This document shows, in pieces, positions 1 to 18,300 of a DNA stretch of 64,000 nt. This DNA comes from Alphaproteobacteria bacterium (GTDB lineage: Bacteria > Pseudomonadota > Alphaproteobacteria > RF32 > CAG-239): assembly GCA_045634545.1 (NCBI GenBank), contig JAZRAL010000052.1, positions 16,580-80,579 on the forward strand. The letters run 5' to 3'. The notes below the pieces were generated by a model. The model ran no database searches. It was not told the origin of the DNA and was given only the letters and a program-made list of their open reading frames with translations. The first letter of the stretch is position 1; the number at the start of each line of letters is the position of its first letter. Made by a program: the position numbers and the translations under genes.

Positions 1-542
1 CAATATTAATAAATGGAGAAGCTATTGACTTAGCCCATATTTATTACAAAAAAGATAATCAATTTATAAATTTAGCAATAGCCTCTAAATGTATATCTGA
101 TGGACAATATAACATAACCGCTACACTTAAAGACCTTCAACTCATCAATAGAAATTCAGAAAAAGACAGAATTGAAGCCCAAAAACAAGCTAAAGAATAT
201 TTTCAAACTTGTTTTAAGGAAAACGCCCCTAATAAAAAACATCTAGCAACAGTAGATATTATAGAAAGAAATTCCTTATACAGAGAATGTATTGTAAGCA
301 AAATAAAAGAAGAAATAAGAAAGAGTTTCACTCTAAAAGAGCAAGAAAGTATAATAAATTCACTAGAAGGAATACAAAAAAACGCGTTTAGTTTTTATTC
401 CAAATTTCATCAAACCAATAAATATTGCACTCCCTCATGTGGTTCTATCTCTCTTATTATGCCATACATTGATGAAGGAAAAGTTTTAGAGAAAATCTTG
501 GAAGATACTATATATTTGAATATATCCAAAGGAGAGTACTAA
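1..542 (+). CDS. C-terminal part of a Cys-containing secreted/periplasmic protein, DUF1311/LprI-like (5' end outside window)
   Basis: Frame 3 is open from the window edge to TAA at 540-542. It is absent from the ORF track because it has no start in the window. The tail NKYCTPSCGSISLIMPY resembles the C-termini of 6409..6906 and 8180..8638. The stop lies 1 nt before the ATG of 544..954. Confidence 0.45.
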   Translation, partial: ILINGEAIDLAHIYYKKDNQFINLAIASKCISDGQYNITATLKDLQLINRNSEKDRIEAQKQAKEYFQTCFKENAPNKKHLATVDIIERNSLYRECIVSKIKEEIRKSFTLKEQESIINSLEGIQKNAFSFYSKFHQTNKYCTPSCGSISLIMPYIDEGKVLEKILEDTIYLNISKGEY

Positions 543-543
543 A

Positions 544-954
544 ATGAAAAAACTAATCACAATTTTCACCATACTTTTAGCCTCTTGCACAACCTTAAAA
601 AAAGACAAATTTGTAAACCCCATTTTTTATAAAACAATGCACCCAATATCAAAAATGGTAGGAGAAACACAAATCACCCCTACATCTTATAGAAGCGATT
701 ATAACGGATATATAACAACAGGAAACTGTATTTTATTAGAAAATGAACAAAACTACATCAAACTAAAATGTGAAATATTATATCCTGGAGAAACCGAACT
801 TCAAACAGAAATTATAAAATATGAACTTTCAACAGATGTGAATCCCTATCTTTATAATGAAAACGAACAAGAAATCGTAGAAACCACACTTAAAAATGAA
901 ACAAATGAAGATTTTTCTTCTAAAGTATGGCTTTATATAAATCTTTTAGAATAA
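544..954 (+). CDS. small lipoprotein of unknown function, convergent with the GH24-type modular muramidase
   Basis: Signal peptide with lipobox LLASC (Cys15). A palindromic hairpin lies at 953-976 after the stop. Confidence 0.6.
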   Translation: MKKLITIFTILLASCTTLKKDKFVNPIFYKTMHPISKMVGETQITPTSYRSDYNGYITTGNCILLENEQNYIKLKCEILYPGETELQTEIIKYELSTDVNPYLYNENEQEIVETTLKNETNEDFSSKVWLYINLLE

Positions 955-1019: not shown

Positions 1020-2306
1020 TTAATATCTTACATTTTTAAGTTTTCTTAACATATCTTGAATTGCTTTATTACGTTCAGGTAATCCATTTCTTTTACTTTC
1101 TTTAATCATTTTACCTACATCTCTATTAGCAACCGCATCCCAAAAACTTGGATATCCTCTAGATTCTCCATCTTTTCCATAAGTTATGATATAGTCAAAT
1201 CTGGTTTGCCCCATATTATACATCATATCCATTAAAACAATTTGCAAAGGTTGAGGTAATTTATGAAAATCAGGAATATTATTTTCCTTTTTAGGGTCTT
1301 TGTTATAACGTTTTATTGTGCTTTGAATATTATTAAAAGCTTCTTTTGCTCTTTTATCATATTCTCTATTTACATACTCACTTGATACACGAAGATTAGT
1401 TTTTTTCTCATAATATTTTGCTACATAATTATTTTTTCTAGTTTTTTTCTCTTTATCATAAGGGAGTTTTTCCTTTTCTTTTTCTAGTTTTAATAATTCC
1501 TCTTTAATTAACCTCAAATCAGCAGGATTATTCTTATCTAAATGACGCAATTCTCCAGTGTCTTGATTTTTATAATACCAATCCATGCTCAATGGATTTT
1601 CATCAATATTTGCCCCAACTCCAATAGTTATAAGACCATTTGTATCAAGATATGGATAATCATATAAACCTTCTTCTTTTTGAATAATAGGTCGCATTGT
1701 TTTATGAATAAAGTTATTTTGATTAAATTTATTATTATCAATTTTTAACTCTTTTTCCTCCTCATCCCTTTCCACATTCGCATCACTTTCCATCCCCCCA
1801 TGTTCATTCTCTGCAATTTTTATCTCCCGATTTGCCTTATCAACCTTTTCTCTTAAAACATCAAGCTCACTTTTCTCTGAATTTTCCCTCTTAGGCTTTG
1901 GTTTCTTAACTCCTTGTTGTTCTCGAAGCGCCCTAATTACTGCTAACTGATTTGTCATATCAAGTCTATCAATTGCCCTCCTTTGCTCATCAGAAAGCTT
2001 TAATCCCTCCAAAGAAAAATCCTCATCATCCGGAAGCAATGAATTAGACTTCTTCACATTTGTTTTTATTTCATCATCACTAGAAGATTGTGGCGCTCTA
2101 TACCCCATACGCCTTTCTTCCAAAACTTCTTCTAATGCACCATCAATTCTTGCAAAATCAAGCTCAAAATTATCTCGCAAATCTCCACTTTGCTCAATTT
2201 CTTCAACACTTCCATACTTATCTAAAAGTTTATGAAGTTTTTTCTTGTTTTCTCTTTTAGTTACCATTTTGCTATCGCCTACTAAGTCCATTAAATTATA
2301 TGTCAT
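1020..2306 (-). CDS. modular muramidase: conserved ~188-aa N-terminal module plus GH24 (T4-lysozyme-like) C-terminal domain
   Basis: QKEEGLYDYPYLDTNGLITIGVG reproduces the T4L E-x8-D-x5-T catalytic spacing, and a later LMDMMYNMG helix fits GH24. The N-terminal 188 aa are near-identical to 8626..9726. No signal peptide. Confidence 0.8.
   Translation of the reverse strand: MTYNLMDLVGDSKMVTKRENKKKLHKLLDKYGSVEEIEQSGDLRDNFELDFARIDGALEEVLEERRMGYRAPQSSSDDEIKTNVKKSNSLLPDDEDFSLEGLKLSDEQRRAIDRLDMTNQLAVIRALREQQGVKKPKPKRENSEKSELDVLREKVDKANREIKIAENEHGGMESDANVERDEEEKELKIDNNKFNQNNFIHKTMRPIIQKEEGLYDYPYLDTNGLITIGVGANIDENPLSMDWYYKNQDTGELRHLDKNNPADLRLIKEELLKLEKEKEKLPYDKEKKTRKNNYVAKYYEKKTNLRVSSEYVNREYDKRAKEAFNNIQSTIKRYNKDPKKENNIPDFHKLPQPLQIVLMDMMYNMGQTRFDYIITYGKDGESRGYPSFWDAVANRDVGKMIKESKRNGLPERNKAIQDMLRKLKNVRY
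1741..2306. repeat. 566-bp dispersed direct repeat, copy 1 (encodes the shared N-terminal module)
   Basis: Aligns without indels to 9161-9726 at a constant offset of 7420 bp. Mismatches are scattered, roughly 90% identity by eye. Similarity stops at the start codon and at the domain junction. Confidence 0.9.
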
Positions 2307-2426
2307 AATTTTATCCTTTCATATAAAAAAGAGCTACAACCTTTCGGTCATAACTCTTTGGTTATTAAAAAGAGCTCCATCAAGGAGCTCTACAAAGTTT
2401 TATATTAAATAACAATATAAAAGCAT

Positions 2427-4565
2427 CTATTTTTTACGATACATTTTTATATCATTCATAACATTTTCAAAGTTTTCACTTTCTTTAATCATCTTAATAT
2501 CATGACTAAGTTTAACTCTCCAGTTAGTATATTCATCAATAGTCCCCGGAGCATTATCCAAAACTCTTTGAGAAAAAATATCACATAATCTTACTAAATA
2601 AAGAGCACTATTTGTCTTTGCACCAAATAAATTAACAGCTCTTTCAATTCCTTGAGGAACAATACATCCATTCTGTGCAGTCTGCTCCATAGAAATTTTT
2701 AGTACTTCATTTAATATACCTTCTTTAGCAAATGCCTTAATCATATTCAATCTATCATTTTTACGTCCTTCAAGATTAGACATATATTGTTCATGATTTA
2801 CATACAATCCACATTGCTTAAATACTTCAATATCTTCATTTCCCCAAAAACCAACAGATGTTGCTTGGTCATGTGTAGAAGATTGAGCCAAAGACATATA
2901 GTCATATTTATTAGGCTCAATAAAACTACCATCTTTTTCCTTTTGCCTAAAGAAAACTTTATATGATAAAAGCCCATGCTCTGCCATATATTCTCTAAAT
3001 CCTTCAGGAACAGTACCTAAGTCTTCACCAATGATTAAACACTTAGCTCTATTACTTTCTATTGCTAAAATTGCCGTCAAAGCTTTCATATCATAATAAA
3101 CATAAGCACCTTGAACAACAGGATTTCCCTCTTCAAAAAATCCCCAAAACAGCCTTAAAAGTCCCATAGCGTGGTCAATTCTAAGAGCCCCAGAATTAAT
3201 CATATTTTCACGAGCAAGCTTAATAAATGGAGCATATCTCTGCTTTCTTAAAACTTGAGGATGATAAGGAGTAAATCCCCAACTTTGTCCCCTTGGTCTC
3301 ATCGGATCGGCTGGAGCACCAATTCCTGCATCCAAAACATAAGCTTTAGTATTTTCCCAAACCTCAGCACCATTAGATGCAGCGCCAATTGGCATATCAG
3401 TATAAAGCCCAACTTTCATCCCTAACTCAACACAAAGATTTTGCAGTTTTCTTAATTGCCTATCAGCAATCCAATGACAATATGCAAACATTTCAATACG
3501 CTTATCATTTTTGTTTGCAAAATCTCTTACTTTTTCAGAATTTATGTCATCTGTTCCATCAATCCAAAAACGCCAAAAAGGAACAACCTTATTTTTTTCA
3601 AGCAATGCCTCAAACAAGCAAAGATTATAAAGCTCACGTCCCTTCTTACTCTTATAGTCATTAAAGTCTTCTTTTCTATCAACACTACCAGACTTTAAGA
3701 ACTCATCAAACATCATAGATAAAAGTCTAAGCTTCAAATGTAAAACTGGAGTATATAAAACTTTATCACTATCATTTAAGCGTTTTATTTCATTAACAAC
3801 AACGCTATCGTTCATAAAGTTCTTAACTTCTTCAGAAGTATTAAAGTCTTCAACAGCCCTCAAATTAATATATGCATAATTCAAAAACAATCTGCTTAAA
3901 GTTCTATAAGGTGAAACATCTCCCTTAAACAAATTTAGCATAGATTGAGGCAAAGTAAACGGACTCATTGCTCCCAATGGACTAAGTCCAACAACATCAC
4001 CGCCATTTTTAGCTGTAAGCTTAATAATTTCCTCTAAATCACCAAAGTCGCCAATACCAATGCTATTTTCAGATCTTAAAGCATACATCATCAAAGAAAC
4101 ACCATATATGTGCTCTTTATTTTTAAGAAATTCCGGCATATAGCAGTACTTAGGCGCATATATTAGAAAACTATTGGCTTTTTCTTCACCTTTTCCATTC
4201 TTTATAATAAGATTATAATACCCAAGTTCTAATCCTGTAATCTCAAAAGCTTCTTTTCCCTTAGCTTTAAGATTTTTAACAACCTTATTTGCCTCATCAA
4301 TTACATCAACATCAAAACTTCCATCACTATCAATAGTAATCTCAATCTTTTCATCATCATAAAAAGCAACTACATCGTCAATAATCCCTTTTTTAGACAC
4401 ATTTTCTAAAGATTCCTCAATCTCTGCACTAGTATACGTATTATACCCCATAGATTTTAAGAAAAATTTACGAACATCGTCAGTTGTTTCATGTTTATTT
4501 CCCACCTTATCAATATAAGACGAAGAAATACCAGCCTTTTCAGCCAAATTAGTCAAAATATCCAT
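2427..4565 (-). CDS. malQ: 4-alpha-glucanotransferase (amylomaltase, GH77)
   Basis: 712 aa. GH77-type motifs LRIDHAMGLLRLFW and GEDLGTVP; length similar to E. coli MalQ. Confidence 0.88.
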   Translation of the reverse strand: MDILTNLAEKAGISSSYIDKVGNKHETTDDVRKFFLKSMGYNTYTSAEIEESLENVSKKGIIDDVVAFYDDEKIEITIDSDGSFDVDVIDEANKVVKNLKAKGKEAFEITGLELGYYNLIIKNGKGEEKANSFLIYAPKYCYMPEFLKNKEHIYGVSLMMYALRSENSIGIGDFGDLEEIIKLTAKNGGDVVGLSPLGAMSPFTLPQSMLNLFKGDVSPYRTLSRLFLNYAYINLRAVEDFNTSEEVKNFMNDSVVVNEIKRLNDSDKVLYTPVLHLKLRLLSMMFDEFLKSGSVDRKEDFNDYKSKKGRELYNLCLFEALLEKNKVVPFWRFWIDGTDDINSEKVRDFANKNDKRIEMFAYCHWIADRQLRKLQNLCVELGMKVGLYTDMPIGAASNGAEVWENTKAYVLDAGIGAPADPMRPRGQSWGFTPYHPQVLRKQRYAPFIKLARENMINSGALRIDHAMGLLRLFWGFFEEGNPVVQGAYVYYDMKALTAILAIESNRAKCLIIGEDLGTVPEGFREYMAEHGLLSYKVFFRQKEKDGSFIEPNKYDYMSLAQSSTHDQATSVGFWGNEDIEVFKQCGLYVNHEQYMSNLEGRKNDRLNMIKAFAKEGILNEVLKISMEQTAQNGCIVPQGIERAVNLFGAKTNSALYLVRLCDIFSQRVLDNAPGTIDEYTNWRVKLSHDIKMIKESENFENVMNDIKMYRKK

Positions 4566-4677
4566 TTTTTCTATCTCCTATTTTTTTCTGAGGATAAAGC
4601 AAAAAGAATCTTTAACAAGTATTTTTTAGTATTATATACACCAATTATAATAAAAAACAAAAATCTAGGAAAAAACA

Positions 4678-6216
4678 ATGAATACTAAAAAAATCATTCA
4701 ATACATTCACCAATGTCGTTGGTGTGATTTCAAAGAAGAAATCGAAAAAAGTCAAGTATCCCGTTTAGAATTAACAGCCCTACCCTTTGATGACAATAAA
4801 AAAGCATTTGTTGTTGGCACTGTTAAGTTTCATGACGATAGAGCAAATAAATTTTTCTCAATGCCTCTTGCTATTAAAGAAACAGCCCCAACTGAAAATA
4901 TCTCTTACATTGAAGATAATGGCAAATTCTATACTGACGCTCTCATTGAGCCAGACTTTTGGCAATCATTTAGCAAATTCTTAAACCAAAACAATGGTCA
5001 AATTGTATTTCCAAACGGTTTAATTTTAGAAAATACAACATTTGGCACTACCAATATGTTTGAAGAGTTGGCTACCGAAGAATCCAAAGCTCTCGGAGTA
5101 GAACAAAGCAATACCACCCTAAAAATTGGTAATGGCAAACTAGCATTCAAGCTTGAGCGTATGTTAGACTTTATTCCTGAAATAAATTCAGAATTAGAAG
5201 TAAACGAAAAGCTTATGAGAGAAAATGCAACATTTATGCCTAAATCATTTGGAGGCCTTGTATGGCGCACACCAGATGGTAGACAATCAGCCGGAGGTAT
5301 TGTTCAAGAATTTGTAACCAACAAAGGCGATATGTGGAATTACCTTCAATCGCTCATCCAAAACAAATTAGAACAAAACTATTTATCTCAAACAGATTTA
5401 ACTCCACAAAACAATCAAGAAATAATGTCTTTGATATCAACTCTTCATAAACGCACACAAGAAATGGGAGAGGTTTTATCAAGACCCGATGAAAATAAAA
5501 GCTTTTCACCTGAACCTGTTGATATGACATTTATTCGCAATTATGAACACAATTTATCTGTACTCTTATATCAAACTAAAAATACAATTGAAGAAAATAT
5601 AAATAAACTTCCTTTAGATATAAGAAGAACTACTGAAAATATGTTAAATAATTGGGATGAATTAACATCTAATTTTGTAACTCCTAAATTAGAAAAGATA
5701 AAATCTTTAGAAGATAAAGGCTCAATCAATCGTGTTCACGGAGATTATCACTTAGGACAAGTTATGGTAACACCAGAAAACGATATAAAAATTATCGATT
5801 TTGGTGGCGAACCAGGGCTTCCAATTAAAGAACGTAAACAAAAATATATCTCTATCAGAGATATCGCTGGCATGTATCGTTCAATAAAAGGATACCTTGG
5901 AGCAGTTGCTGTAGAAGACTTTGCTAAAAAAGCAACAACTCCAGAAGCCGTAAGCGCTCGTAAATCTTGGGGACAAAAGGCTATAAAACCATTAATCAAA
6001 GAAGCAACATCAACTTTCCTTGGAGAGCATAAAGTTTCAGATCCTTGGTTAAGTCTAGAAATTTTACGTAAAAATCTTTATGAAGTAAAATATGAAGTTG
6101 CAGAACGTCCAGAAATGGCTTATGTTCCAATTCAAGGTTTAACAGAATTGTTTGCACAAACTCAATCACAGCATGCAAACGAAAATATCAAATCATCATT
6201 TGATAAAGCTGAATAA
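4678..6216 (+). CDS. maltokinase (Mak/Pep2)-like kinase of the aminoglycoside-phosphotransferase fold
   Basis: RVHGDYHLGQVM catalytic-loop motif followed by IIDFGGEP. Divergent from malQ. Confidence 0.6.
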   Translation: MNTKKIIQYIHQCRWCDFKEEIEKSQVSRLELTALPFDDNKKAFVVGTVKFHDDRANKFFSMPLAIKETAPTENISYIEDNGKFYTDALIEPDFWQSFSKFLNQNNGQIVFPNGLILENTTFGTTNMFEELATEESKALGVEQSNTTLKIGNGKLAFKLERMLDFIPEINSELEVNEKLMRENATFMPKSFGGLVWRTPDGRQSAGGIVQEFVTNKGDMWNYLQSLIQNKLEQNYLSQTDLTPQNNQEIMSLISTLHKRTQEMGEVLSRPDENKSFSPEPVDMTFIRNYEHNLSVLLYQTKNTIEENINKLPLDIRRTTENMLNNWDELTSNFVTPKLEKIKSLEDKGSINRVHGDYHLGQVMVTPENDIKIIDFGGEPGLPIKERKQKYISIRDIAGMYRSIKGYLGAVAVEDFAKKATTPEAVSARKSWGQKAIKPLIKEATSTFLGEHKVSDPWLSLEILRKNLYEVKYEVAERPEMAYVPIQGLTELFAQTQSQHANENIKSSFDKAE

Positions 6217-6223
6217 AAAAACA

Positions 6224-6252
6224 AAGTGCTAGCCTAAAAACTAGCACTTTTT
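6224..6252 (+). terminator. rho-independent terminator after the maltokinase-like gene
   Basis: Stem AAGTGCTAG/CTAGCACTT with an 8-nt loop, followed by a T-run. Confidence 0.6.
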
Positions 6253-6408
6253 ACTTTCAAATATTTCTCTAAAACTATTCTCTCCCCTTCCCAAAAATCT
6301 CTCTATTCTTTTATTGACTTTTCTCTTAAAACATCAAACTCACTTTTTTCTTGCATAATATAATTAAAAGCATAAATTAAGCGTATAATTAAAAAACGGA
6401 GCCACAAA

Positions 6409-6906
6409 ATGAAAAAGTTTTTAATATTTTTCAGTTTTTTTATTTTTATAAAAACATCATCTGTATGTGCAAACAACACATATCATGGTATTGATATTGA
6501 TGAAATATACAACACTAGTGACTGGAATAGTAAAAATGAAATTAAAAATTTAATAGATAATTATATATTATTAACAAAATTAAAAAACAAGTTTTCCAAT
6601 TGTCCAATTAATACACCAGATAGTATAGCTTGCTATGATGAAATAAATCAAAAATTATTACAACATTTTTACATGGATTTTGATGAAAATTTGACAGATT
6701 ATAATAATTATAGAATAACTTTGACGAAAGCATATTTAATTCCTTGTCAACGTATTAAAATGATAGGTATAAGTGGTAAAATGTGTCATATTGATGCCCA
6801 AAATCTTGTTGCAAAAAAACTGAAAGAATATACAAAAACACATATTTATCATATTGATAATATTCTAAGTCAGTATTTTTCTTTTTTGCATAGTATAAAA
6901 CTATAA
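6409..6906 (+). CDS. secreted Cys-containing protein, DUF1311/LprI-like (candidate lysozyme inhibitor/immunity)
   Basis: Signal peptide MKKFLIFFSFFIFIKTSSVCA, paralogous to that of 8180..8638. Cys spacing and a helix pattern like LprI. Convergent with the GH108-type fragment at 6957..7085. Hairpin at 6911-6946. Confidence 0.6.
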   Translation: MKKFLIFFSFFIFIKTSSVCANNTYHGIDIDEIYNTSDWNSKNEIKNLIDNYILLTKLKNKFSNCPINTPDSIACYDEINQKLLQHFYMDFDENLTDYNNYRITLTKAYLIPCQRIKMIGISGKMCHIDAQNLVAKKLKEYTKTHIYHIDNILSQYFSFLHSIKL

Positions 6907-6956
6907 AAAAATATAAGGAGGAAGTCTTATTTAATTTCCTCCTTATTTATAATAAA

Positions 6957-7085
6957 TTATTTTGCTAAATGAGCTCTTTTAGCTCGATCAATCCACCCTG
7001 TTAAAAACTTTTTCTTAGTTGGATCATTTTTTTGATACTCATCTTCAACTGCATTTGCTTTATCAGAAAATATTTTTTTATCTAT
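6957..7085 (-). pseudogene. orphan 3' fragment of a GH108/PG_binding_3-type muramidase gene
   Basis: Translates to IDKKIFSDKANAVEDEYQKNDPTKKKFLTGWIDRAKRAHLAK*. DNA at 7026-7080 is nearly identical to 8686-8740 in the 3' end of 8626..9726. It has no N-terminal part or start codon. Confidence 0.6.
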
Positions 7086-7861
7086 TCAACTTGCTCAATA
7101 AAATCTCCAGCTTCCCCTGTTTCTTTAATATAACTATTAACAGTATCTCTTACCATAGAATAAACACTTGCTGAAACATAATCAGCAATAATCGTTCCTG
7201 TAACATGTCCTTCCATTCCAGAATAAATATCTCTTTGAACATTTGCATAATACTGTATAAAATTTTGCAAATTATCTTTATATTTTTGAGAATTACTAGG
7301 ATGAAATGTATCAAATAACTCAAAAGCAACCTTTACATAACAATCACTAACATCACTCAATCTTTGCCTAACATCTGCATTTTTTATATATTCTTCATCA
7401 TAAATTTCATCATCTTTAACATTTTCACAACTCTCATACCTTTCTTTAATTTTAAAATACTTATCTTTCAAAGTAATAAAACTTAAATCCGGATTTATTT
7501 CTTTAACAAAATCTATTAAAGGAGCTTCACATTCAATAATTATTCCAAGATTTTGATATTTTTCCTTATCATTAAAACGCACAAATAAATCATTTGCTCC
7601 ATAAACACCAAAATTATGAATTTTAAACATTTTAACAAATCCATCATTACCTGCATCATAAAGTGTTTCCTTTATATCATCATATTTAATTATATTAGGT
7701 ATATAAGGATAAGAAAGAAGCACAATTTCTTGCGCTTCTTTCAGTACAGACTTTGCTTTTTCTACCTCTTCTTTTGTAAGATTATTACATCCCCAATACA
7801 TTGCATACGAAGATGTTGCCATAACACAAAAAACAAACAATAGAAAAAACTTTTTCATCAT
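7082..7861 (-). CDS. secreted protein with a DUF1311/LprI-like C-terminal half
   Basis: ATG at 7861 follows a GGAG RBS; the track start at 7873 is TTG. Signal peptide MMKKFFLLFVFCVMATSSYA. The C-terminal segment QNFIQYYANVQRDIYSGMEGHVTG fits the family pattern. Confidence 0.55.
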   Translation of the reverse strand: MMKKFFLLFVFCVMATSSYAMYWGCNNLTKEEVEKAKSVLKEAQEIVLLSYPYIPNIIKYDDIKETLYDAGNDGFVKMFKIHNFGVYGANDLFVRFNDKEKYQNLGIIIECEAPLIDFVKEINPDLSFITLKDKYFKIKERYESCENVKDDEIYDEEYIKNADVRQRLSDVSDCYVKVAFELFDTFHPSNSQKYKDNLQNFIQYYANVQRDIYSGMEGHVTGTIIADYVSASVYSMVRDTVNSYIKETGEAGDFIEQVE

Positions 7862-7936
7862 AAAAAACTCCAATTCAAAATCATACCTTGCAGTATATAT
7901 TTTAGTTTAATAAATTCAAGTACTTTATACTCAAAT

Positions 7937-8149
7937 TTATTTTCTGTTATATCCATATTCGTAAAGGAGTTCTAAAGTTTCACGAGTTTTTTTATTTCTA
8001 CTAGCCAATTCTTTCCCTTCTGAATATCTTTTGCTTTCTTTAATCATATTAGATAAATCACGATTTTCTAGAGCCTTCCAAAAACGTGGATAACCTCTTT
8101 TCTTTCCATCCCTCATCTCTTTCCTATTGACTTTTCCCCTAAAACTCAT
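7937..8149 (-). pseudogene. orphan 3' fragment of a GH24-type modular muramidase gene
   Basis: KKRGYPRFWKALENRDLSNMIKESKR parallels ESRGYPSFWDAVANRDVGKMIKESKR at the C-terminus of 1020..2306. The catalytic and N-terminal parts are missing. Confidence 0.55.
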
Positions 8150-8179
8150 ATCATAACTTAATCACCAAAGGAGCCTTAA

Positions 8180-8638
8180 ATGAAAAAGTTTTTAATTTTT
8201 TTTAGTTTTTTATTTGTTTTTAATGTAGAAAAAGTTAAAGCCAACAATATAGCTAAGCTCGATGAATTAAATAAGAAATTTATTACATGTACAAAAAAAT
8301 TAGAAACATACGAACAAAAATGCCCTGAAAAATGGAAATACAAATGCTATAATATTCTAATGAATGCTAATAATGAAACACAAGAATGTTATATTGATAT
8401 AGCAAAAGAATTATATTTAATTTACTATAAACAAGACTATATATCAACACAAAAAATGTTTAAAGAAATAGCTGATTTTACGTATAAAAAACACTTATTT
8501 ATATATCAAGAAAATAATTACTGTAAAAATTATAACTGTGGCACATCAACATATTTACGCAGTCAACATGCCACAACTCAAACAATTAAAGATTATCTAG
8601 ATAAAACATTTATCACCATAAAAAATTATTTAGAATAG
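8180..8638 (+). CDS. secreted Cys-containing protein, DUF1311/LprI-like (candidate lysozyme inhibitor/immunity)
   Basis: Signal peptide MKKFLIFFSFLFVFNVEKVKA. The C-terminal NYCKNYNCGTSTYLRSQHATTQTIKDYL fits the LprI-like pattern. It overlaps the 3' end of 8626..9726 convergently by 13 nt. Confidence 0.65.
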   Translation: MKKFLIFFSFLFVFNVEKVKANNIAKLDELNKKFITCTKKLETYEQKCPEKWKYKCYNILMNANNETQECYIDIAKELYLIYYKQDYISTQKMFKEIADFTYKKHLFIYQENNYCKNYNCGTSTYLRSQHATTQTIKDYLDKTFITIKNYLE

Positions 8639-9726
8639 CTATTATATCTTTTTCGATGCCCCTTTTCAAATACTTTTTGTGTTGGATCATTTCTTTGATA
8701 CTCATCTTCAACTGCATTTGCTTTATCAGAAAATATTTTTTTAAGTTTCTTATAATTCACACCTCTTAATGCATTAATAGTTTTAGGACCGATTATTCCA
8801 TCTGCTTTAATATTTAAAGCTTTTTGAAGATTTTTTATAGCAGTTGATTGTCCCTGCACAACTGCATTATCAAAAACAATATCTGAAATTTCAATAGGCA
8901 ATGTATTTATCTTATATTTTAACCAATAATCTTTATATAATATCATTGTAGCACGCTCTCGCGTAAGATTTTTTATATCTTCACCAGGATAATATTTTTT
9001 AGTAATTCCCATATTTGTTTCACCTCCTCTATCGTTTTCATGATTAATATAACCTCCTTCGTTTAATTTTGTTCGAACTAAAGCTTTTTGAAAAATTTTA
9101 TCATTTAGCATTTTATCAATAAACTCTCTTGAAAAACCTTTACCATATTTAGAATAATCAATTTTTAACTCTTTTTCCTCCTCATCCCTTTCAACTTCTG
9201 CATCACTCTTTGTTCCTTCATGTTCATTATCCGCGACTTTCAACACCCGATTTGCCTTATCAACCTTTTCTCTTAAAACATCAAGCTCGCTTTTCTCTGA
9301 TTTTTCCTTCTTAGGCTTTGGTTTCTTAACTCCTTGTTGTTCTCGAAGCGCCCTAATTACCGCTAACTGATTTGTCATATCAAGCCTATCAATTGCCCTC
9401 CTTTGCTCATCAGAAAGCTTTAATCCCTCCAAAGAAAAATCCTCATCATCCGGAAGTAAAGAATTTGATTTCTTCACATTTGTTTTTATTTCATCATCAC
9501 TAGAAGATTGTGGCGATCTATATCCCAATTTCCGTTCTTCCAAAACCTCTTCTAATGCACCATCAATTTTTGCAAAATCAAGCTCAAAATTATCTCTCAA
9601 ATCTCCACTTTGCTCAATCTCTTCTACACTTCCATACTTATCTAAAAGTTTATGAAGTTTTCTTTTATTTGCTCTTTTTAAAGCTCTTTCACTATCACCA
9701 ACCAAGTCCATTAAATTATTTTGCAT
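8626..9726 (-). CDS. modular muramidase: conserved ~188-aa N-terminal module plus GH108 domain plus PG_binding_3-like domain
   Basis: NEGGYINHENDRGGETNMGITKKYYP is a GH108 signature and ADGIIGPKTINAL is a PG-binding motif. It has its own GGAGA RBS and follows the portal gene after a hairpin. Confidence 0.8.
   Translation of the reverse strand: MQNNLMDLVGDSERALKRANKRKLHKLLDKYGSVEEIEQSGDLRDNFELDFAKIDGALEEVLEERKLGYRSPQSSSDDEIKTNVKKSNSLLPDDEDFSLEGLKLSDEQRRAIDRLDMTNQLAVIRALREQQGVKKPKPKKEKSEKSELDVLREKVDKANRVLKVADNEHEGTKSDAEVERDEEEKELKIDYSKYGKGFSREFIDKMLNDKIFQKALVRTKLNEGGYINHENDRGGETNMGITKKYYPGEDIKNLTRERATMILYKDYWLKYKINTLPIEISDIVFDNAVVQGQSTAIKNLQKALNIKADGIIGPKTINALRGVNYKKLKKIFSDKANAVEDEYQRNDPTQKVFEKGHRKRYNSYSK
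9161..9726. repeat. 566-bp dispersed direct repeat, copy 2
   Basis: See copy 1 at 1741-2306. Confidence 0.9.
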
Positions 9727-9738: not shown

Positions 9739-9767
9739 TAAAAAAAGCTTACTTTTTAGTAAGCTTT
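9739..9767 (-). terminator. hairpin plus T-run between the portal gene and the GH108 modular muramidase
   Basis: On the minus strand, AAGCTTACT/AGTAAGCTT forms the stem and TTTTTTT follows. Confidence 0.5.
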
Positions 9768-9787: not shown

Positions 9788-11404
9788 CTATTTAAGCCCC
9801 TTCATCGCACCCAATAACGGATTAGATGCAACTCCCATTAATGCTTGAGCATTTTCAAGTGAAGACCTATATTTCAACATCATAACATCATCTTTTGTTC
9901 TAACAATATCACTTTCAACGCCATGATAATCTGCAATTTTGCGCAAAGCATTTTCCATATCAAAAATATCAAGCACCTGTGGATTTGTTTGAGATAATGT
10001 AATCGCAGCCTCAACTGTTTTATATAATCCCATTATCGAATTTGCATCTTGCATTCTAACTGATGGACTTTCAAATTCAATTGCAATAGACCCTTCATAC
10101 ATCAATTCATCAGGAACCCCTTCTAACATACCATAATTTGTTAAAATATCTAATTCTCTCTCAATATTTCCAGTCAACCACTCAGATGCAATTCTTTCAG
10201 CCATCGGAGCCAAAAGCATAGATTTTTCCATCTCTCTTTTCTCAACTTCCGTTGCTGTCATTTGCTTTGATTGTGTTAAAGATTGAAACAATGGTACCAA
10301 AAACGCTCTTTCAATAGATGCTCTAACCTCTCGTTGCATTTCAACCGTAATAGCAAGATTATTTCCATACTGCATCGAAACCGCCTGAGGTTTACCTTGG
10401 TTATCAAGTCCACCTCTGATCACCGCCCCTGCACTACCTAATTTATTAGTATCAATTAATCCCATATTTGTTAAAATTGGAGGATTAGCCTGTAATTGTC
10501 CTGTACGTAAAATTGTTTTCGCCATTTCATTTGCTGTTAGCATATCATAAAATGCTTGTAGCGCCGGACTATCTCCATATGAACTTCCCGCAATACCCAA
10601 AAATCTAGGCGCCATATATGGATTAGATCTATATCCACTTTCTTGAACAATTCTTTTTCCTAAAACCTCTAAATGAACACTAGCATATTTCATACCACCT
10701 TTATCTTTTTTGCCTATATCATAGTTTTCTTTTTCAAAAACAGCATGAATAAATTTAAACATACGCTGAGGAGTATCACTTAAAGCTCTTTTAATTTCGT
10801 TAGATACCTTATCACCAAATTTTTCAAAAGCATCTTGTGCACTAAGTTCATATTCCCTAATAACAGTATCCAAACATCCTTTATCATTACGTTTAATATA
10901 TGCTTCATTAACAGGAATTGTTTTATATACAATACCATTGCCAATATCATCATCAACCATCCAAAGCGCATGCCCATACACACCAAGCTGATTAAACAAT
11001 AAATCACTTTCACTAGCAAAATTAGATTTTGCCGAATATCTACATCTAAAAAGTAAATCCGTTGCACGCTCAAGATATTTCTTAACCTCTTCATTATCAT
11101 CTAATTTAGGATCAACAGCTTTAAGTCTATGCCATCTAGATGTTGTTGGGACAATCACCGATTTCATACTAGCAGCAAAACAAGTAAGTGCATTACGAGC
11201 AGTGCTATCAAAAACATTTTGCTTATGACGTCCTTTTTCATCTTTACTAAAAAGATTAGAATTTATAGCACACATTTCAGCCGCCTTATTCCACATAGGC
11301 TCCCACTCTTTGCGCTCTTTTTTCATCACTTCAAGTTTTTTTAATACAACCTCTGCTGTAACTTTAGATTTCTTTTCTGTTTTATTTTTCAAAATTTCTT
11401 TCAT
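9788..11404 (-). CDS. phage portal (head-to-tail connector) protein
   Basis: ~538 aa. Sits immediately 3' of the large terminase. GGAGG RBS before the ATG at 11404. Size and sequence character fit T7-type connectors. Confidence 0.7.
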   Translation of the reverse strand: MKEILKNKTEKKSKVTAEVVLKKLEVMKKERKEWEPMWNKAAEMCAINSNLFSKDEKGRHKQNVFDSTARNALTCFAASMKSVIVPTTSRWHRLKAVDPKLDDNEEVKKYLERATDLLFRCRYSAKSNFASESDLLFNQLGVYGHALWMVDDDIGNGIVYKTIPVNEAYIKRNDKGCLDTVIREYELSAQDAFEKFGDKVSNEIKRALSDTPQRMFKFIHAVFEKENYDIGKKDKGGMKYASVHLEVLGKRIVQESGYRSNPYMAPRFLGIAGSSYGDSPALQAFYDMLTANEMAKTILRTGQLQANPPILTNMGLIDTNKLGSAGAVIRGGLDNQGKPQAVSMQYGNNLAITVEMQREVRASIERAFLVPLFQSLTQSKQMTATEVEKREMEKSMLLAPMAERIASEWLTGNIERELDILTNYGMLEGVPDELMYEGSIAIEFESPSVRMQDANSIMGLYKTVEAAITLSQTNPQVLDIFDMENALRKIADYHGVESDIVRTKDDVMMLKYRSSLENAQALMGVASNPLLGAMKGLK

Positions 11405-11462
11405 AAATACCTCCATAAATAAAAAAAGGAGAGCAAGCTCTCCATATTAAAATTTTAAATAA

Positions 11463-13211: not shown

Positions 13212-14804
13212 TTAAATAATTTTTTCTAACGCTTGCCAAATCTTCTCATAAGAAGTAAAGAACCCACTAACTTCCTTAAATATACCTGTATTAACAAGGT
13301 CTATGTTGCCTGTCCAATATTCTTGCAAAGTACCATATCCGTTACCAATTCTTACAACAGGTACTTCAAACACAGTATATGGACACTCCGCACCTTTAAG
13401 CCAAGCATCATCTTTTCCAATAAGTCCTAAAGGTAATTCATCAATACTATTGTATGTGCCATCATCCTTTGTATAATAAAGTGTTGTCTGGCTTGGAGTT
13501 TGTTTTACAACCACCCAATATGTAGTATTAAGTTCAATGCTACCACCAGAATATTGACTACCTCTCCAAAATCTCCAAGAGTATCCAGTAGTACCACAAC
13601 CATAATCAGGAGATGCAGGCTTCCAAAAGATATTTCTAGAACCTGTATCACCACCAGTAGTAACCCTAGCAACAAGTACATAGTTTTCACTTGTAGCATT
13701 TGTTATAATCTCTGGAGTTTCTATCCAAGTAGTTTCACTAAAACTCGATGCTTTACCTTTATCATCTAAAGATATTGAACCTGTTTGTGTGAAATCTGTT
13801 AAAAAGATTGGGCTAGGCTCAAACGAAGGTATTACAACTTCGCCAGCCCAAGCATATCCCTCTTTGTCTTGGTCGCTTTGGCTTAATAAGACAACATCAC
13901 CATTTGCAAAAGCATTATAAGTTGTAGCAACACTTGGATTTGCTTTTTCTTCTAATATGCCTACTTCTTCTGCCAAATACTTTGCATTCTTGCCCCATAC
14001 CTCAACACCATTTACAGAGATTGAACACTCATTCAAATCAATAGAGCCGTGCCAAGGTGAATCACCAATATCAATATATCCAATTTGTTGTTGATAGCTA
14101 CCAATCTTTGTATAAGAAACATACGACACATCATTAATATAATCTATTCCATTAAAAGAATATTTTAAATAGTATGTATTTATTGAAGCATCAAAACCTG
14201 CTTTTATCCAATAAGTTGTATCAGCTAGTACAATATGGCTTCCGCTATGTGCAGAAGTGTTAATCCAAGAACTACCACTAGATACTAAAAGTTGCCATCT
14301 GCCCTTTGTCGTTCCAGCTGTACCAATTCTAAAACCTCTTTGGTCGACATTACAACTTATAAAAGGACTTTCTTTAGTTAAATCATTAGCAGAAGTGGTA
14401 ACCTTAAAATTTACTTCCCAACTATTAGTTCCACAATTTATAAATGGCATATTAATATAATTACCTTTGCTAAATCCACTTACAACATTGTTTTGTATTG
14501 TAAGAGAACCTACAATATCATATGCCAAACCTTTTTTAGTTGATAAATATTTTTTTCCCTTAACATACGGAGCTAAAAAACCACCCATCGAAGGACTAAG
14601 TTCACCATTCCAAAGTTTCTTACCTTCAAACCATATGTAGCCATTTTCAAAAGTGTAATCAATACCTTCAAACTTTGTTAGAGTAAAACTTCTTTCCTCG
14701 TTTTCGTTATATACATCCAAGGCGTCTTGATAATAATAGCGAGGTTTACGAATTTTTATACTAACAGGCAAACCCTTAAATGCTTTCTTGTTTAAAGTAG
14801 TCAT
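13212..14804 (-). CDS. tail fibre/receptor-binding protein with two concanavalin/LamG-like domains
   Basis: Two segments have a LamG-like beta-sandwich pattern (RGFRIGTAGTTKGRWQLLVSSG...WHGSIDLNECSI and SWRFWRGSQYSGGSIELNTTYWVVV...WTGNIDLVNTGI). The TAATG stop-start overlap with the upstream gene suggests translational coupling. Confidence 0.5.
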   Translation of the reverse strand: MTTLNKKAFKGLPVSIKIRKPRYYYQDALDVYNENEERSFTLTKFEGIDYTFENGYIWFEGKKLWNGELSPSMGGFLAPYVKGKKYLSTKKGLAYDIVGSLTIQNNVVSGFSKGNYINMPFINCGTNSWEVNFKVTTSANDLTKESPFISCNVDQRGFRIGTAGTTKGRWQLLVSSGSSWINTSAHSGSHIVLADTTYWIKAGFDASINTYYLKYSFNGIDYINDVSYVSYTKIGSYQQQIGYIDIGDSPWHGSIDLNECSISVNGVEVWGKNAKYLAEEVGILEEKANPSVATTYNAFANGDVVLLSQSDQDKEGYAWAGEVVIPSFEPSPIFLTDFTQTGSISLDDKGKASSFSETTWIETPEIITNATSENYVLVARVTTGGDTGSRNIFWKPASPDYGCGTTGYSWRFWRGSQYSGGSIELNTTYWVVVKQTPSQTTLYYTKDDGTYNSIDELPLGLIGKDDAWLKGAECPYTVFEVPVVRIGNGYGTLQEYWTGNIDLVNTGIFKEVSGFFTSYEKIWQALEKII

Positions 14805-16150
14805 TATTTAACTCCTTCAACAACAATTTCATCACTTGCTACATTAACATCTGTTACAATATTTAAGTTTATAGTTTCAGGTAAAACAATATCAACCTCT
14901 ACTTTGCCCTCGCTATCAACATTACCTGTTGCAAATCCTGTAAAAGAGTTTGTAGAATTATAATTAAACTTTTGGTTGCTTACAATTTTCCAACTAGAGC
15001 TACCTAATGTATAAAGTGTAACATCCATAAGATATGTTTCCGACCTAAGTGTTACAAGAGCTTTGCTCATATCAGGAGAAAACGCTAATCTATAACTAAA
15101 ATACTTGTTAGAATTTGCTACTAAATTAAAATCAGTATTCAGTTCTTCAAAACTTTTTGTATCTCTATGATATTTATAAGCATAAACATTATTACGAGTA
15201 CCAACTGTTAGAACATCATTTCTTAAATCAAACTTTGCATAACAATCCTCAACTTGAAAACTCTTAAACATATTATTTTGAAGTTCTAGATATCTTTTGC
15301 CGAGAGTTTCTACAATCTTATATACACGTAAATAGCTATCAGGAATTGCCGTAGTGTTATTTATATAATATCTACTAAAGCAGTTTGTTGCAAAAAATAT
15401 ATAATCACCAACGTCAGCTCCTGTATAACCTACAATCTCTTCATTCTCTTTAACGTTGAGATTAATGTAATTGTTTTCTGTAAATGTTCCGTTTTCATCT
15501 ACATCAAAAAACTGAATACAAGACATACGTGTTACTGTAAACCCTTTACCTGTTTGGCTATCCAAATAACATATTGAACCATTGTTTCCTCCGTGAGAAT
15601 TGGTTAATACTGTATCGCCTAAAGTGTTAGATAGTAGATCATATTTAAAAACTTTTTTATTGTACATATCGTAAGCATAACTTTGTCCGTTATATTCTCC
15701 TAAATACATACCACTAGAAGGTAATTCTATTCTACCATTACTTGTAATTAATGAACTTGGAGTAGATGTGTTAGCGTTTTCACCAAGTCTTATTAGACCA
15801 TTCTTAAAAGTAGTAAAACCACCTGCATTATTACTATACCCCCAAGTGCTGATATCAATTTCAGACCAACTATTGCTAGTAAATACATACTTCCTCATAG
15901 CATTAACAAAGTAAACCAATGCAGTTTCATTATCTGTAAAGATTAAGCCATAATCCCTAATCTCGCTATTTGGTCGTATAGAAAAACCTCTAGATAAGTC
16001 TTGAGGATTAAGTCCCGCATTTACTAAAACCTTATCACCTTTGTTATAAGTAGTACCACTATCATTTGTAACAAAAAATTTGTAACCGCTACCACTTTCA
16101 GAATTATCAATATTTGATATTCCTAAAGCATTTACTCTGCCTTTAACCAT
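14804..16150 (-). CDS. tail fibre/spike-like structural protein
   Basis: 448 aa, rich in Gly/Asn/Thr/Tyr beta-strand-type sequence. Located between the tail tube-like gene and the fibre gene. Confidence 0.4.
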   Translation of the reverse strand: MVKGRVNALGISNIDNSESGSGYKFFVTNDSGTTYNKGDKVLVNAGLNPQDLSRGFSIRPNSEIRDYGLIFTDNETALVYFVNAMRKYVFTSNSWSEIDISTWGYSNNAGGFTTFKNGLIRLGENANTSTPSSLITSNGRIELPSSGMYLGEYNGQSYAYDMYNKKVFKYDLLSNTLGDTVLTNSHGGNNGSICYLDSQTGKGFTVTRMSCIQFFDVDENGTFTENNYINLNVKENEEIVGYTGADVGDYIFFATNCFSRYYINNTTAIPDSYLRVYKIVETLGKRYLELQNNMFKSFQVEDCYAKFDLRNDVLTVGTRNNVYAYKYHRDTKSFEELNTDFNLVANSNKYFSYRLAFSPDMSKALVTLRSETYLMDVTLYTLGSSSWKIVSNQKFNYNSTNSFTGFATGNVDSEGKVEVDIVLPETINLNIVTDVNVASDEIVVEGVK

Positions 16151-16171
16151 TTTATTACCCCTTTCATAAAA

Positions 16172-18298
16172 TTAATTAACATCTATATATGGAATAATCG
16201 CCAATATATTCATTGGTAACGGGCTATCATTTTCAATTAAAATTTGCGCCCCTTTTTCATTAATATTCGTCATTCCATTAAATAAAATTTCTTTATGGCC
16301 AGAAAATAATTCCTGAGATTTATTCATAACTTCATCAACATTTCGATAATAAATATCCTGTAGCATTTTTTCATTCTGGCCTATTTTTCCACCGCCAGAC
16401 ATATATAAAACAAGCAAAACATGATTTATTTTCTGCCTTTGTCCTATTCCACTACCACTTTCATTACCAATAAAAATATACTGCGGAATAAATTGACTTT
16501 TTATAGGAAGTCCAACAACATGCACATTATTTTTAGAAATTTTCACCTTTCCATCAATAACAACTTGTTCATTACAAATAGCCCCATCAGCAAAAATTTT
16601 AACCTTTTCACCTTCCAAATGTTCTAAGCCATCTATAACGTCTATCTCATCACCAACTTTCCTATTAAAATTTATCGCACTATCAAGATAAAGCGCTTGG
16701 TTTTTTATATACTCACCTTCCAATCTCAAACGTTCATCAATATTTTCTTCTCCATAAACACTATCAGGTAAAAATTGAGGAATACCATGCTCCATTTTTT
16801 CAATTGTTCTAACAGTTTTCGAATCAATATTCCTTTTTACTTCAATCCAAACATCATCATGACAATCTTCTAAATTTGGAACTATTGCCAAACTTTCAAC
16901 TTTACCACTAAAATCATGCCTAGAAAAAGCAACAACTTCCTGTTCACTTGAAAACGTCATCCCAATTAATTGCCCATCATTCATTAAGCACCATAATATC
17001 TTATCTGGCACTTCTTGATAACTCATTGCAATCAATCTAGAAGCAAACAAGTGTTTCCCAAATATAGAAATATCTGTTTGATCATACCCTTCATTATAAT
17101 AATCATACATCAAATCTCTTAAAGAAAGCCCGTATCTGTCAGAAAAAAACACATGTTTGCCTACACTAACAGGCATAATAGCTTTACTTCCCACCTGTGA
17201 AATTTGAGATATTTTCACATTATCAGCAGCCATTGCCGCAGATGCTGTCATAGAATCAATATAAAATTCGCTAGCTCCCGTTCCAACAAACAAAACATCT
17301 TTTGCATAAAGCCATTTTCCTTCATTAAATTCATTATTAAGAACAGGAACAGTTATTGCTGTTTCCGCCGTTACCTCCCCTACATCAAGATCCGAAAAAT
17401 TATTATAATCACCAGACATCGACATACAAACATTAGGACCTGTTTCAGTATTTATAAGAAAACAAAATCTGTTCCTAAAAAAAGCACCCGATATTGGGTG
17501 CTTTACTCCTTTGTGAAGCATACCAAGTTCCCAATACTTTGTCCCTTTTTTTATACTATCAGGAAGTCTTGCAATAACCTTTGCTTTCACTTTTTTGCTA
17601 TTAACAAATTCAATAATTTTTACAATACCAATTCCATCATGAATAAACTTCCATCTAACACCTCCATCAGATTTAACCCCAACACTATGAACTGGCTTAA
17701 TTGCACCACTTGTCGCCTCGTTAGTAGAAACATAATATTTATTATCCGAAAAACAAATCTCTCCAATTTCGTATTCTTTTCCACTCACCCAACAATTTGT
17801 GTCATCATCATAGTTACGTAATCTAAGAAGTCGTCCCTCATCATTTTGTAAAAACAAATCTTCAGATGCTGTTAAATTAACTTCTCCTTCAAAAGCATCA
17901 CTACTAATTACACAATCACTAGTATTCATTGCTAAAAAAGGACCATTTTTTATTTCAAGTTCTTCTAATCTCCAATCTATATTTGAATATCTTTTAAGCA
18001 TTGTAATTGGATGATTTTCACTAAATATATAAAGCACATCCGAATGCTGTATGGTTTGCAATCCAAAACATTTTTCATCATCATTCCATAAATCTTCATA
18101 CCCATACGGACTATCAATCAAAAGCTCAGGATATTGAGTTGCTAATAATTCTTCATCATCTACTAGCGCCTCAATTCCACCGTCAGTAACTATCTGATTT
18201 TTAGCAAACAACCTTATTTTTTTATGACTAAATTCCACCACATAAGCAACCCTATGGCTATACTTAAATGGCACTAAAAAACTTCTTTTATATCCCAT
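16172..18298 (-). CDS. large podovirus tail structural protein (tail tubular B/nozzle-like)
   Basis: ~708 aa from the ATG at 18298 (GGGAGAG RBS; the track start at 18325 is GTG). N-terminus is KRSFLVPFKYSHRVAYVVEFSHKKIRLF. Size and position match a T7 gp12-like slot. Confidence 0.45.
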   Translation of the reverse strand: MGYKRSFLVPFKYSHRVAYVVEFSHKKIRLFAKNQIVTDGGIEALVDDEELLATQYPELLIDSPYGYEDLWNDDEKCFGLQTIQHSDVLYIFSENHPITMLKRYSNIDWRLEELEIKNGPFLAMNTSDCVISSDAFEGEVNLTASEDLFLQNDEGRLLRLRNYDDDTNCWVSGKEYEIGEICFSDNKYYVSTNEATSGAIKPVHSVGVKSDGGVRWKFIHDGIGIVKIIEFVNSKKVKAKVIARLPDSIKKGTKYWELGMLHKGVKHPISGAFFRNRFCFLINTETGPNVCMSMSGDYNNFSDLDVGEVTAETAITVPVLNNEFNEGKWLYAKDVLFVGTGASEFYIDSMTASAAMAADNVKISQISQVGSKAIMPVSVGKHVFFSDRYGLSLRDLMYDYYNEGYDQTDISIFGKHLFASRLIAMSYQEVPDKILWCLMNDGQLIGMTFSSEQEVVAFSRHDFSGKVESLAIVPNLEDCHDDVWIEVKRNIDSKTVRTIEKMEHGIPQFLPDSVYGEENIDERLRLEGEYIKNQALYLDSAINFNRKVGDEIDVIDGLEHLEGEKVKIFADGAICNEQVVIDGKVKISKNNVHVVGLPIKSQFIPQYIFIGNESGSGIGQRQKINHVLLVLYMSGGGKIGQNEKMLQDIYYRNVDEVMNKSQELFSGHKEILFNGMTNINEKGAQILIENDSPLPMNILAIIPYIDVN

Positions 18299-18300
18299 AG

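Follow-up and report, generated by a model that had tools for sequence, protein, structure and literature searches.

The 64,000-nucleotide (nt) stretch analysed here (the window; positions 16,580 to 80,579 of contig JAZRAL010000052.1, assembly GCA_045634545.1, from an Alphaproteobacteria bacterium) harbors two genes, LYS1 and LYS2, whose products join a common N-terminal module (N-module) to two different peptidoglycan-hydrolase domains. Both genes lie on the minus strand, each behind a terminator-like hairpin:

1020..2306, minus strand: LYS1, 428 amino acids (aa), with the N-module at about 1780-2306 and a predicted T4-lysozyme-fold domain at 1023-1721 with an insert of about 70 aa
2328..2359, minus strand: terminator-like hairpin before LYS1, with a 14-bp stem, a GAAA loop and a U-run, 21 nt before the start codon
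8626..9726, minus strand: LYS2, 366 aa, with the N-module in codons 1-175 (about 9202-9726) and GH108 and PG_binding_3 domains at about 8629-9141
9744..9767, minus strand: terminator-like hairpin before LYS2, between the portal stop and the LYS2 start, of other sequence and the same design

The preliminary description of this DNA had reported two open reading frames (ORFs) with a common N-terminus and unrelated C-termini, and both exist: BLASTP aligns LYS1 and LYS2 with 175 of 214 residues identical (82%, E=1e-98), the likeness stopping near residue 190 with nothing beyond. Over the first ~175 residues identity is 82-88%, and at the DNA level positions 1727-2026 (LYS1) and 9147-9446 (LYS2) are 91% identical over 300 nt. 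The reading of the LYS2 C-terminus as GH108 followed by PG_binding_3 is borne out by Pfam, with a match to Glyco_hydro_108 (PF05838, E=5e-19, 68.9 bits against a gathering cut-off of 21.2) that contains a catalytic motif of the EGGY type (NEGGY), and a borderline match to PG_binding_3 (E=4e-5, 24.3 bits, slightly below the 24.6-bit gathering cut-off); LYS2 also matches phrog_315 (endolysin) with E=2e-39. The LYS1 C-terminus, described as GH24 with an insert, has no Pfam match above threshold, Phage_lysozyme not being significant, and in a profile of its relatives the E-x8-D-x5-T/S segment aligns only weakly with T4 lysozyme residues 5-37 (E~0.03-0.1). The assignment holds at the level of the fold. 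AlphaFold models residues 191-428 with a predicted local distance difference test score (pLDDT) of 88.8, and T4 lysozyme makes up nearly all of the top 50 Foldseek matches (prob 1.00, template-modelling score on target 0.60-0.64), hence the LYS1 C-terminus is, by its predicted structure, a T4-lysozyme-like (T4L-like) fold carrying about 70 inserted residues. E22 and D31 of this domain are invariant in eight relatives, with T or S after them. Neither lysin has a hydrophobic signal segment at its N-terminus, in agreement with the reported absence of signal peptides, and the two N-modules contain 41% charged residues, with a pI of ~5.2.

Searching with the N-module alone and tabulating the C-termini and neighbours of the relatives, as had been proposed, shows that the constant module with swappable C-termini comprises at least nine C-terminal types instead of two, and that portal adjacency recurs in a diverged relative. 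The types, assigned by Pfam and BLAST, are two T4L/GH24-like, five GH108 subgroups (GH108a-e), T6SS_VgrG3-like_C (PF21277, E~1e-27) and one SLT-like, plus at least two that are not recognised. The recognised ones are hydrolase domains for the glycan strands of peptidoglycan. One of the T4L-like groups shows a weak Pesticin match (E=0.003), whereas the SLT-like label is our own reading of an E-S...GKYQ motif, the fold being confirmed by neither Pfam nor PDB profile search. Family members P0085, P0105, P0123, P0084 and P0122 also carry C-termini without a recognisable fold, and the payload range of the N-module family may extend beyond lysozymes.

The exchange of C-termini can be followed between the window and the metagenome-assembled genome (MAG) of a sister strain, SIG44 (locus L009), whose portal fragment differs at 1 of 313 residues (99.7% identical), whose malQ is 97% identical and whose flanks are 94% identical in DNA. 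After the portal SIG44 has a GH108c lysin where the window has GH108a, and after malQ it has a VgrG3-like lysin where the window has the T4L-like GH24a. In both lysins the nucleotide homology ends at codon ~175, right after the NEHxGTKSD motif, as two independent swaps. Read from these aligned loci, cassette replacement of lysin C-termini at a fixed junction is shown between near-identical strains, and the diversification by cassette exchange suggested earlier is now visible with both C-termini replaced. The ratio of nonsynonymous to synonymous substitution rates (dN/dS) of the lysin domains is 0.15-0.3.

The N-module itself is ~175 aa long, constant, highly charged and cysteine-free, and ends in the motif NE(H/Y)xGxKSD. 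It had been described as resembling no recognised delivery domain, and the sequence and fold searches are all negative: no match in Pfam at E<=0.01, in PHROGs, in the PDB by single sequence or by profile, or by tblastn in 50,697 phage genomes, and none by Foldseek with the AlphaFold model, which is poor (pLDDT 62) and predicts no globular N-domain. The MuF-superfamily signal (PF04233, PF06152) is lacking, with nothing in Pfam and a profile without PDB match, and hhalign finds no similarity to gp06 of phage BcepC6B, the protein of the same gene slot (see below). With 54 matches among 5.8e9 clusters, 79 among 1.84e9 representatives and only 4 further loci from a scan of metagenome contigs, the family is narrow, and all named sources are MAGs of an uncultured 'Alphaproteobacteria bacterium' in animal (rumen included) or human gut. 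Distant members retain two elements, a ~75-aa head (consensus KKKLHxLLDKYG...F.YMFA...DEVLEER) and the junction motif; a short LxDLV segment, not diagnostic of a TonB box, is conserved at residues 5-9. Judged by these searches, the N-module is a new, narrow protein family.

The small exported proteins noted earlier at the locus have Sec-type or lipobox starts, and they turn out to be specific for each C-terminal type. Those of the window lie as follows, together with two orphan lysin ends:

1..543, plus strand: sec247, the 3' part of a gene for a 247-aa exported protein, cut by the window edge; elsewhere it partners GH108b-type lysins
544..954, plus strand: lipo136, a 136-aa lipoprotein with lipobox LLASC, convergent with LYS1; constant partner of GH24a-type C-termini
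6409..6906, plus strand: sec165, a 165-aa signal-peptide protein, intact; partner of GH108d-type lysins, the local lysin being decayed
6966..7079, minus strand: orphan end of a GH108a/d-type lysin, by sequence match to a lysin C-terminus
7082..7873, minus strand: 263-aa signal-peptide protein, 35-39% identical to the partner of the SIG44 GH108c-type lysin
7937..8149, minus strand: orphan end of a GH24a-type lysin, by a tblastn match at 7973-8113
8180..8638, plus strand: sec152, a 152-aa signal-peptide protein with 6 Cys, convergent with LYS2 with a 13-nt overlap; partner of GH108a-type lysins

All lysin genes and decayed tips are followed within -46 to +69 nt by an exported-protein gene (Sec signal or lipobox), the exception being L011, with one interposed partner gene. 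The partner family tracks the catalytic type of the lysin, with independent repeats for seven pairs: GH24a-lipo136 in five loci (the window, L003, L011, L028 with a partner 57% identical, and L009 as an orphan), GH108a-sec152 in the window, L012 and L022, GH108b-sec247 in L003 and L013, GH108d-sec165 in L024, L011 and the window remnant, GH108e-sec164 in L017 and L019, VgrG3C with a 154/156-aa partner in L011 and L009, and SLTb-sec214 in L001 and L010. Partners contain 2-6 Cys each and show dN/dS of 0.04-0.5; the lipo136 family is confined to this clade and unnamed. The sec247 part of the window (1..543) has 98% DNA identity to L003 and L011, and the window sec165 differs from the L011 copy by 1 aa (dN/dS 0.04). 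In L029, an X1-type lysin whose C-terminus has no recognisable fold (3590-4543, minus strand) is convergent with an exported protein (2676-3188, plus strand) that is a distant relative of the 165-aa partner.

Most partner genes converge on the lysin gene from the opposite strand and have their own promoter-like segment. The N-module and the partner promoter/signal-peptide segment enclose the variable unit, i.e. catalytic domain and mature partner, from its two sides, so that homologous recombination can replace domain and partner together, as has happened between the window and the near-identical SIG44. Concerning these partner starts, genes of unrelated families have a common promoter-like 5' flank, with variants TTGCAT..TAAATT and TTGACT..TATCAT (window 8100-8225, 6330-6450 and 480-545; also L003 and L009-L013), and across families they have a strong GGAG ribosome-binding site and a common signal peptide, MKKFLIFFSF.

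The orphan C-terminal cassettes reported earlier were recovered as a GH24a-like (7973-8113, minus strand) and a GH108-like one (6966-7079, minus strand); these two lysin tips of the window are decayed, while the adjoining partner genes are intact. L031 holds an island of six or seven partner genes of different families with lysin crumbs only (9525-13198), which adjoins the dcw cell-division cluster (mraY-ftsW-murB-ftsQAZ). Intact partners beside decayed lysins, together with this partner-only island, argue that the partners would be useful on their own, a property to be expected from inhibitors or immunity proteins, though not from spanins.

Two further characteristics belong to the lysins as a family. 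All N-module lysin genes have a terminator-like hairpin with a U-run ~20 nt upstream, ahead of the ribosome-binding site, and it is conserved in 11 loci (the two window sites plus L001, L003, L009-L014 and L016); in their alignment 96.7% of cells are paired, compared with 40-64% in slid controls, with 3 compensated pairs, and the segment upstream of LYS1 has a folding energy of -32.9 kcal/mol (z = -5.3). Since no space is left for a promoter past the hairpin, transcription of the lysin must read through, a layout that suggests antitermination-type control. The lysins are, moreover, nearly cysteine-free, with 9 Cys in 11,784 aa (LYS1, LYS2 and 32 relatives) versus 1.08% in other long window ORFs, and the depletion spans unrelated catalytic folds. 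Near-absence of cysteine is typical of proteins that cross envelopes unfolded, e.g. colicins.

LYS2 belongs to a prophage, whose genes in the window (the first three assigned by Pfam) are:

9788..11416, minus strand: portal of the T7/BPP-1 type (PF12236, E=2e-99)
11463-12767, minus strand: large terminase
12769-13143, minus strand: small terminase of the Sf6 type
13212..19443, minus strand: tail genes, comprising a fibre-like 530-aa protein, a 448-aa protein, the nozzle (phrog_376, E=4e-145) and a 380-aa protein with a head-fibre domain

As had been noticed, one lysin copy lies immediately 3' of the portal gene: the gap between portal and LYS2 is 61 nt. The order of portal and then lysin recurs in SIG44 and in the diverged L027, where a portal 72% identical to that of the window is followed by an N-head gene merely 37% identical. 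The nearest portals outside are those of BcepC6B-like, Pelagibacter and Liberibacter podoviruses (~30-37% identity; 34% to BcepC6B gp05). Head genes are not missing, since in SIG44 the scaffold-like and capsid-like genes lie past the second lysin gene, where a gp07-like gene (E=2e-6 against BcepC6B gp07) is succeeded by one capsid-like and one tail gene and by the genes of two internal virion proteins and of large core proteins. L022 presents a lysin array and then the same head/tail/internal-virion order as SIG44, and L011 a lysin array after the internal-virion-protein block, with no wall-hydrolase domain found in the internal virion proteins of L011. The lysin slot corresponds to gp06 in the BcepC6B order portal-gp06-gp07-capsid. 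Gene order shows the lysin gene to be part, in conserved synteny, of the head module of a podovirus like BPP-1 and BcepC6B, with the portal on one side of it and the scaffold-like gene on the other. Compared with SIG44, the window portal has a dN/dS of 0.04 and a dS of 0.06 and malQ (window 2427-4565) a dS of 0.31, which indicates that the phage genes are functional and that the phage region was shared more recently than the core genome; with the lysin-domain and partner ratios given above, purifying selection is seen on all parts.

The prophage order is unusual (window 9788-22233; L009 11170-20540), with tail and fibre genes ahead of small terminase, large terminase and portal, while the scaffold-like, capsid-like and internal-virion genes lie past the lysin arrays, malQ and a 512-aa gene; this arrangement could stem from recombination involving the directly repeated N-modules. 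Neither the 333-aa ORF at 21232-22233 nor the 448-aa ORF at 14804-16150 was retained as capsid candidate, both being without likeness to PDB, PHROG, phage or BcepC6B-capsid sequences and a capsid-like gene having been found in SIG44, which also led us to drop a gene-transfer-agent-like or capsid-less element. Inside the tail region, on the opposite strand, there is a gene for a GtrII-like membrane glucosyltransferase (PF14264; 19625-21220, plus strand), which may be a surface-modification (serotype-conversion) moron; its neighbour, the 333-aa ORF, has no match anywhere.

Other features of the window can be described briefly. Next to malQ, the conserved 512-aa gene (4678-6216, plus strand) is syntenic with malQ in three genomes; it has no Pfam match, and a 'maltokinase' label for it is unsupported. 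A 138-nt direct repeat (57748-57885 and 59187-59324, 94% identical) closely precedes a tyrosine integrase gene, which is followed by a Fic-domain gene (59485-60735 and 61214-62281) in a low-GC (26-29%) stretch, the whole being probably a separate integrated element. The earlier remark that the window has no type V, VI or VII secretion genes was confirmed, no secretion-system gene of any kind being found among the ~45 window ORFs scanned, and none was found in the 64 kb or in ~20 related loci up to 20 kb, apart from a non-adjacent HlyD-family gene and an autotransporter; the lysin proteins carry no PAAR, MIX, Rhs, VgrG, LXG or XVIPCD signature.

Taken together, the loci display the architecture of polymorphic toxins, with a constant region, a sharp junction, exchangeable tips, orphan tips, and linked as well as orphan partner genes, and the architectural elements proposed beforehand are all supported by the tests made. 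The explanation we favour, to which we give about an even chance of being right, is a phage-associated polymorphic system of lysins and putative periplasmic inhibitors, with a presumed delivery by the phage. By way of the N-module the enzyme would enter the phage particle or attach to it, travelling as cargo of the portal or ejectosome in the manner suggested for MuF proteins; it would then be freed into the periplasm of the attacked cell and cut the wall there. The partners would be periplasmic inhibitors, made from their own promoters by lysogens and other cells, that neutralise an incoming lysin of the matching type, like T4 Spackle acting on gp5 or an immunity protein on its toxin. The terminator hairpin would hold off lysin expression until late (antiterminated) phage transcription. 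Carriage of inhibitors would in turn select for lysin replacement, a proposal which would account for the turnover of types, the orphan inhibitors and the inhibitor-only islands. Roles as entry enzyme and exclusion factor or as weapon and immunity are both compatible with the data, which look like an arms race; hence the two possibilities put forward at the outset, a particle-loaded interbacterial toxin and a virion lysin diversifying by cassette exchange, both survive.

Several observations weigh against this explanation. The placement of the lysins in the particle is deduced, the N-module is not homologous to MuF, to scaffold proteins or to any ejection protein (model pLDDT 62), and an N-module scan of 2.9 million IMG/VR viral contigs gave no match. 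The partners have no Pfam match and belong to no known inhibitor or immunity family. The wall-hydrolase domain of T7 gp16 is dispensable under most conditions, so blocking such a domain may be a weak form of exclusion. Moreover, lysin copies also stand alone in the chromosome, intact and under purifying selection: of the 11-12 distinct locus groups whose flanks could be used, ~5-6 lack a recognisable phage structural gene in the surrounding ~10 kb, and examples adjoin uvrB, dnaJ or a retron. Such intact, selected stand-alone copies would be more in keeping with a weapon owned by the host than with an entry tool of the phage. Beside one of them, in L012, a reverse transcriptase and a PRTase-CE gene (a retron-like defence pair; 6424-9162) lie directly upstream of the lysin/partner cassette.

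Podovirus particles of these gut Alphaproteobacteria might also be a phage-dependent secretion route for a host-maintained arsenal of polymorphic, periplasm-acting toxins, a bolder proposal that we consider unlikely. Chromosomal and prophage lysins, having the same N-module and terminator gate, would be switched on jointly by phage antitermination upon induction, loaded into heads via the portal-linked N-module and injected into the periplasm of competitors as wall-destroying toxins, with kin surviving through arrays of periplasmic inhibitors. A weapon role could also be exerted without particles, as a bacteriocin that stays in the cytoplasm, is freed by prophage-induced lysis of some cells and is imported across the outer membrane of a target via its N-module, much as pesticin and colicin M use translocation and receptor domains, the partners being periplasmic immunity proteins which protect kin. 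The absence of a signal peptide and the near absence of cysteine, in which colicins are alike, would agree with this, as would partners that are convergent, exported and equipped with their own promoters, an arrangement also found for immunity in the pesticin and colicin M loci. Several intact paralogues per genome in non-phage contexts point in the same direction, together with one C-terminal type weakly matching Pesticin and others that are VgrG3-like, a domain known from interbacterial toxins (PMC3390615, PMC9927483), and with orphan-partner islands resembling orphan-immunity arrays (PMC12247911); that LxDLV at residues 5-9 could be a TonB/Tol-box-like element is pure speculation. However, a poorly ordered N-module of only ~175 aa, 41% of them charged, without a predicted globular receptor-binding domain, is hard to reconcile with such import, no lysis or release gene was identified, and the conserved place right after the portal in diverged phages is left unexplained, so that we regard a bacteriocin as a doubtful alternative.

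Recurrent portal adjacency also stands against effectors of a conventional secretion system (type VI (T6SS), type IV or other) encoded elsewhere, for which the N-module would be a recognition or adaptor domain, the partners Tgi/TsiV3-like immunity proteins and the phage link incidental hitch-hiking. T6SS Tge/Tgi pairs typically unite a muramidase effector with periplasmic immunity, the VgrG3-like_C domain also being typical of them (PMC9620997, PMC9927483), and the chromosomal stand-alone copies would suit this as well, but with neither adjacent secretion genes in the window and related loci nor any of the targeting signatures named above in the lysins we consider it very unlikely. There is similarly little probability that these are ordinary prophage endolysins with an odd N-terminal accessory or regulatory domain, whose neighbours are morons or spanin-like and whose copies are old prophage relics. 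GH108 with PG_binding_3 and T4L-like domains are indeed classic in endolysins (phrog_315, phrog_7), no other endolysin is seen in the prophage parts covered, and the terminator just ahead of the gene recalls the lambda tR' terminator, which precedes the lysis genes. From spanins, however, one would expect neither a one-to-one correspondence with the catalytic type nor islands in which they survive by themselves, and most partners lie on the opposite strand with a promoter of their own. Lysis cassettes do not occupy the slot between portal and scaffold, no holin-like gene (small multi-transmembrane ORF) is adjacent, and instead of a holin-endolysin-spanin cassette the lysin loci have neighbours that are mostly convergent exported proteins; cysteine avoidance across folds and purifying selection on multiple paralogues would also go unexplained.

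Returning to the polymorphic lysin and inhibitor system, its relevance lies in the fact that phage polymorphic toxins have so far been known via the MuF family, with cytoplasmic payloads and a delivery that was never demonstrated. The lysins would follow a MuF-like logic, built independently on an unrelated N-module in Gram-negative gut bacteria and with wall-acting payloads, and they make the idea of particle-delivered polymorphic proteins directly testable by co-expression, binding and particle proteomics. If the partners are inhibitors, the loci record a Spackle-type arms race between lysin and inhibitor with exchangeable cassettes and would, in that case, represent a novel form of superinfection exclusion or of immunity between bacteria. 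The catalogue offers ~10 new candidate lysozyme-inhibitor families, several new cysteine-free muramidase scaffolds and one candidate capsid-targeting tag. The family occurs only in one small clade of uncultured bacteria, and the central steps of its function are inferred.

Concerning known systems, the closest in organisation are the MuF toxins, which are encoded directly downstream of portal genes together with immunity genes (Jamet et al. 2017, PMC5576092; Bxa family PMC11699363), ~87% of muf genes being near a portal or terminase gene (PMC5576092). Both have a conserved N-terminal domain with variable C-terminal domains, an adjacent small gene proposed as immunity, a home in prophages of gut bacteria and a proposed delivery by particles, and the place immediately downstream of the portal is found here in the window, SIG44 and L027, though not in the stand-alone copies. 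The elements agree with the polymorphic toxin criteria of Zhang et al. 2012 as cited in PMC5576092, i.e. a constant trafficking region, exchangeable tips and immunity genes. Nevertheless, the N-module has no PF04233/PF06152 similarity, is shorter and largely non-globular, and many lysin copies are chromosomal and stand alone. MuF payloads are nucleases, ADP-ribosyltransferases, peptidases and RelA-like domains with cytoplasmic targets, lysozyme or peptidoglycan never being mentioned (PMC5576092), whereas the payloads here are predicted wall hydrolases with a periplasmic site of action and exported partners.

In function, the likeness is to T4 gp5 and Spackle, the periplasmic inhibitor of this virion lysozyme (PMC7677548): there, a phage-delivered T4L-fold lysozyme acts from the periplasm and an exported inhibitor gives superinfection exclusion, and here the lysins and partners show type-specific linkage and export signals. 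However, gp5 is a myovirus baseplate spike while the lysins are portal-adjacent small proteins, T4 has one fixed pair without cassette polymorphism, and the partners have no sequence similarity to Spackle. Pesticin/Pim and colicin M/Cmi (PMC3390615) likewise place a delivery part at the N-terminus and a T4L-like muramidase at the C-terminus, and they have no signal peptide and a periplasmic immunity protein, but a recognisable receptor-binding or translocation domain is lacking here, the genes are phage-embedded and not plasmid-borne, and the catalytic types are many more. With the T6SS pairs of the VgrG3/Tgi/TsiV3 kind the loci have in common PF21277 among the cassettes, adjacent periplasmic-type partner genes and orphan immunity arrays (PMC9927483, PMC9620997, PMC12247911), whereas no T6SS gene or targeting domain is found in the window or related loci and the N-module is unrelated. 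The ejection proteins of podoviruses (T7 gp16; the 'endolysin' gp16 of BcepC6B) come from the same phage lineage, with nozzle, adaptor and internal virion proteins present, and the proposed role of opening the wall during entry is the same; in those phages, the hydrolase forms part of a core protein of 700-1300 aa, whereas in the present loci it is a protein by itself, of 320-460 aa and with its own N-module, and the large internal proteins encoded by these prophages show no hydrolase domain. By analogy, the system works like a MuF toxin and like the gp5/Spackle pair, and it is a member of neither.

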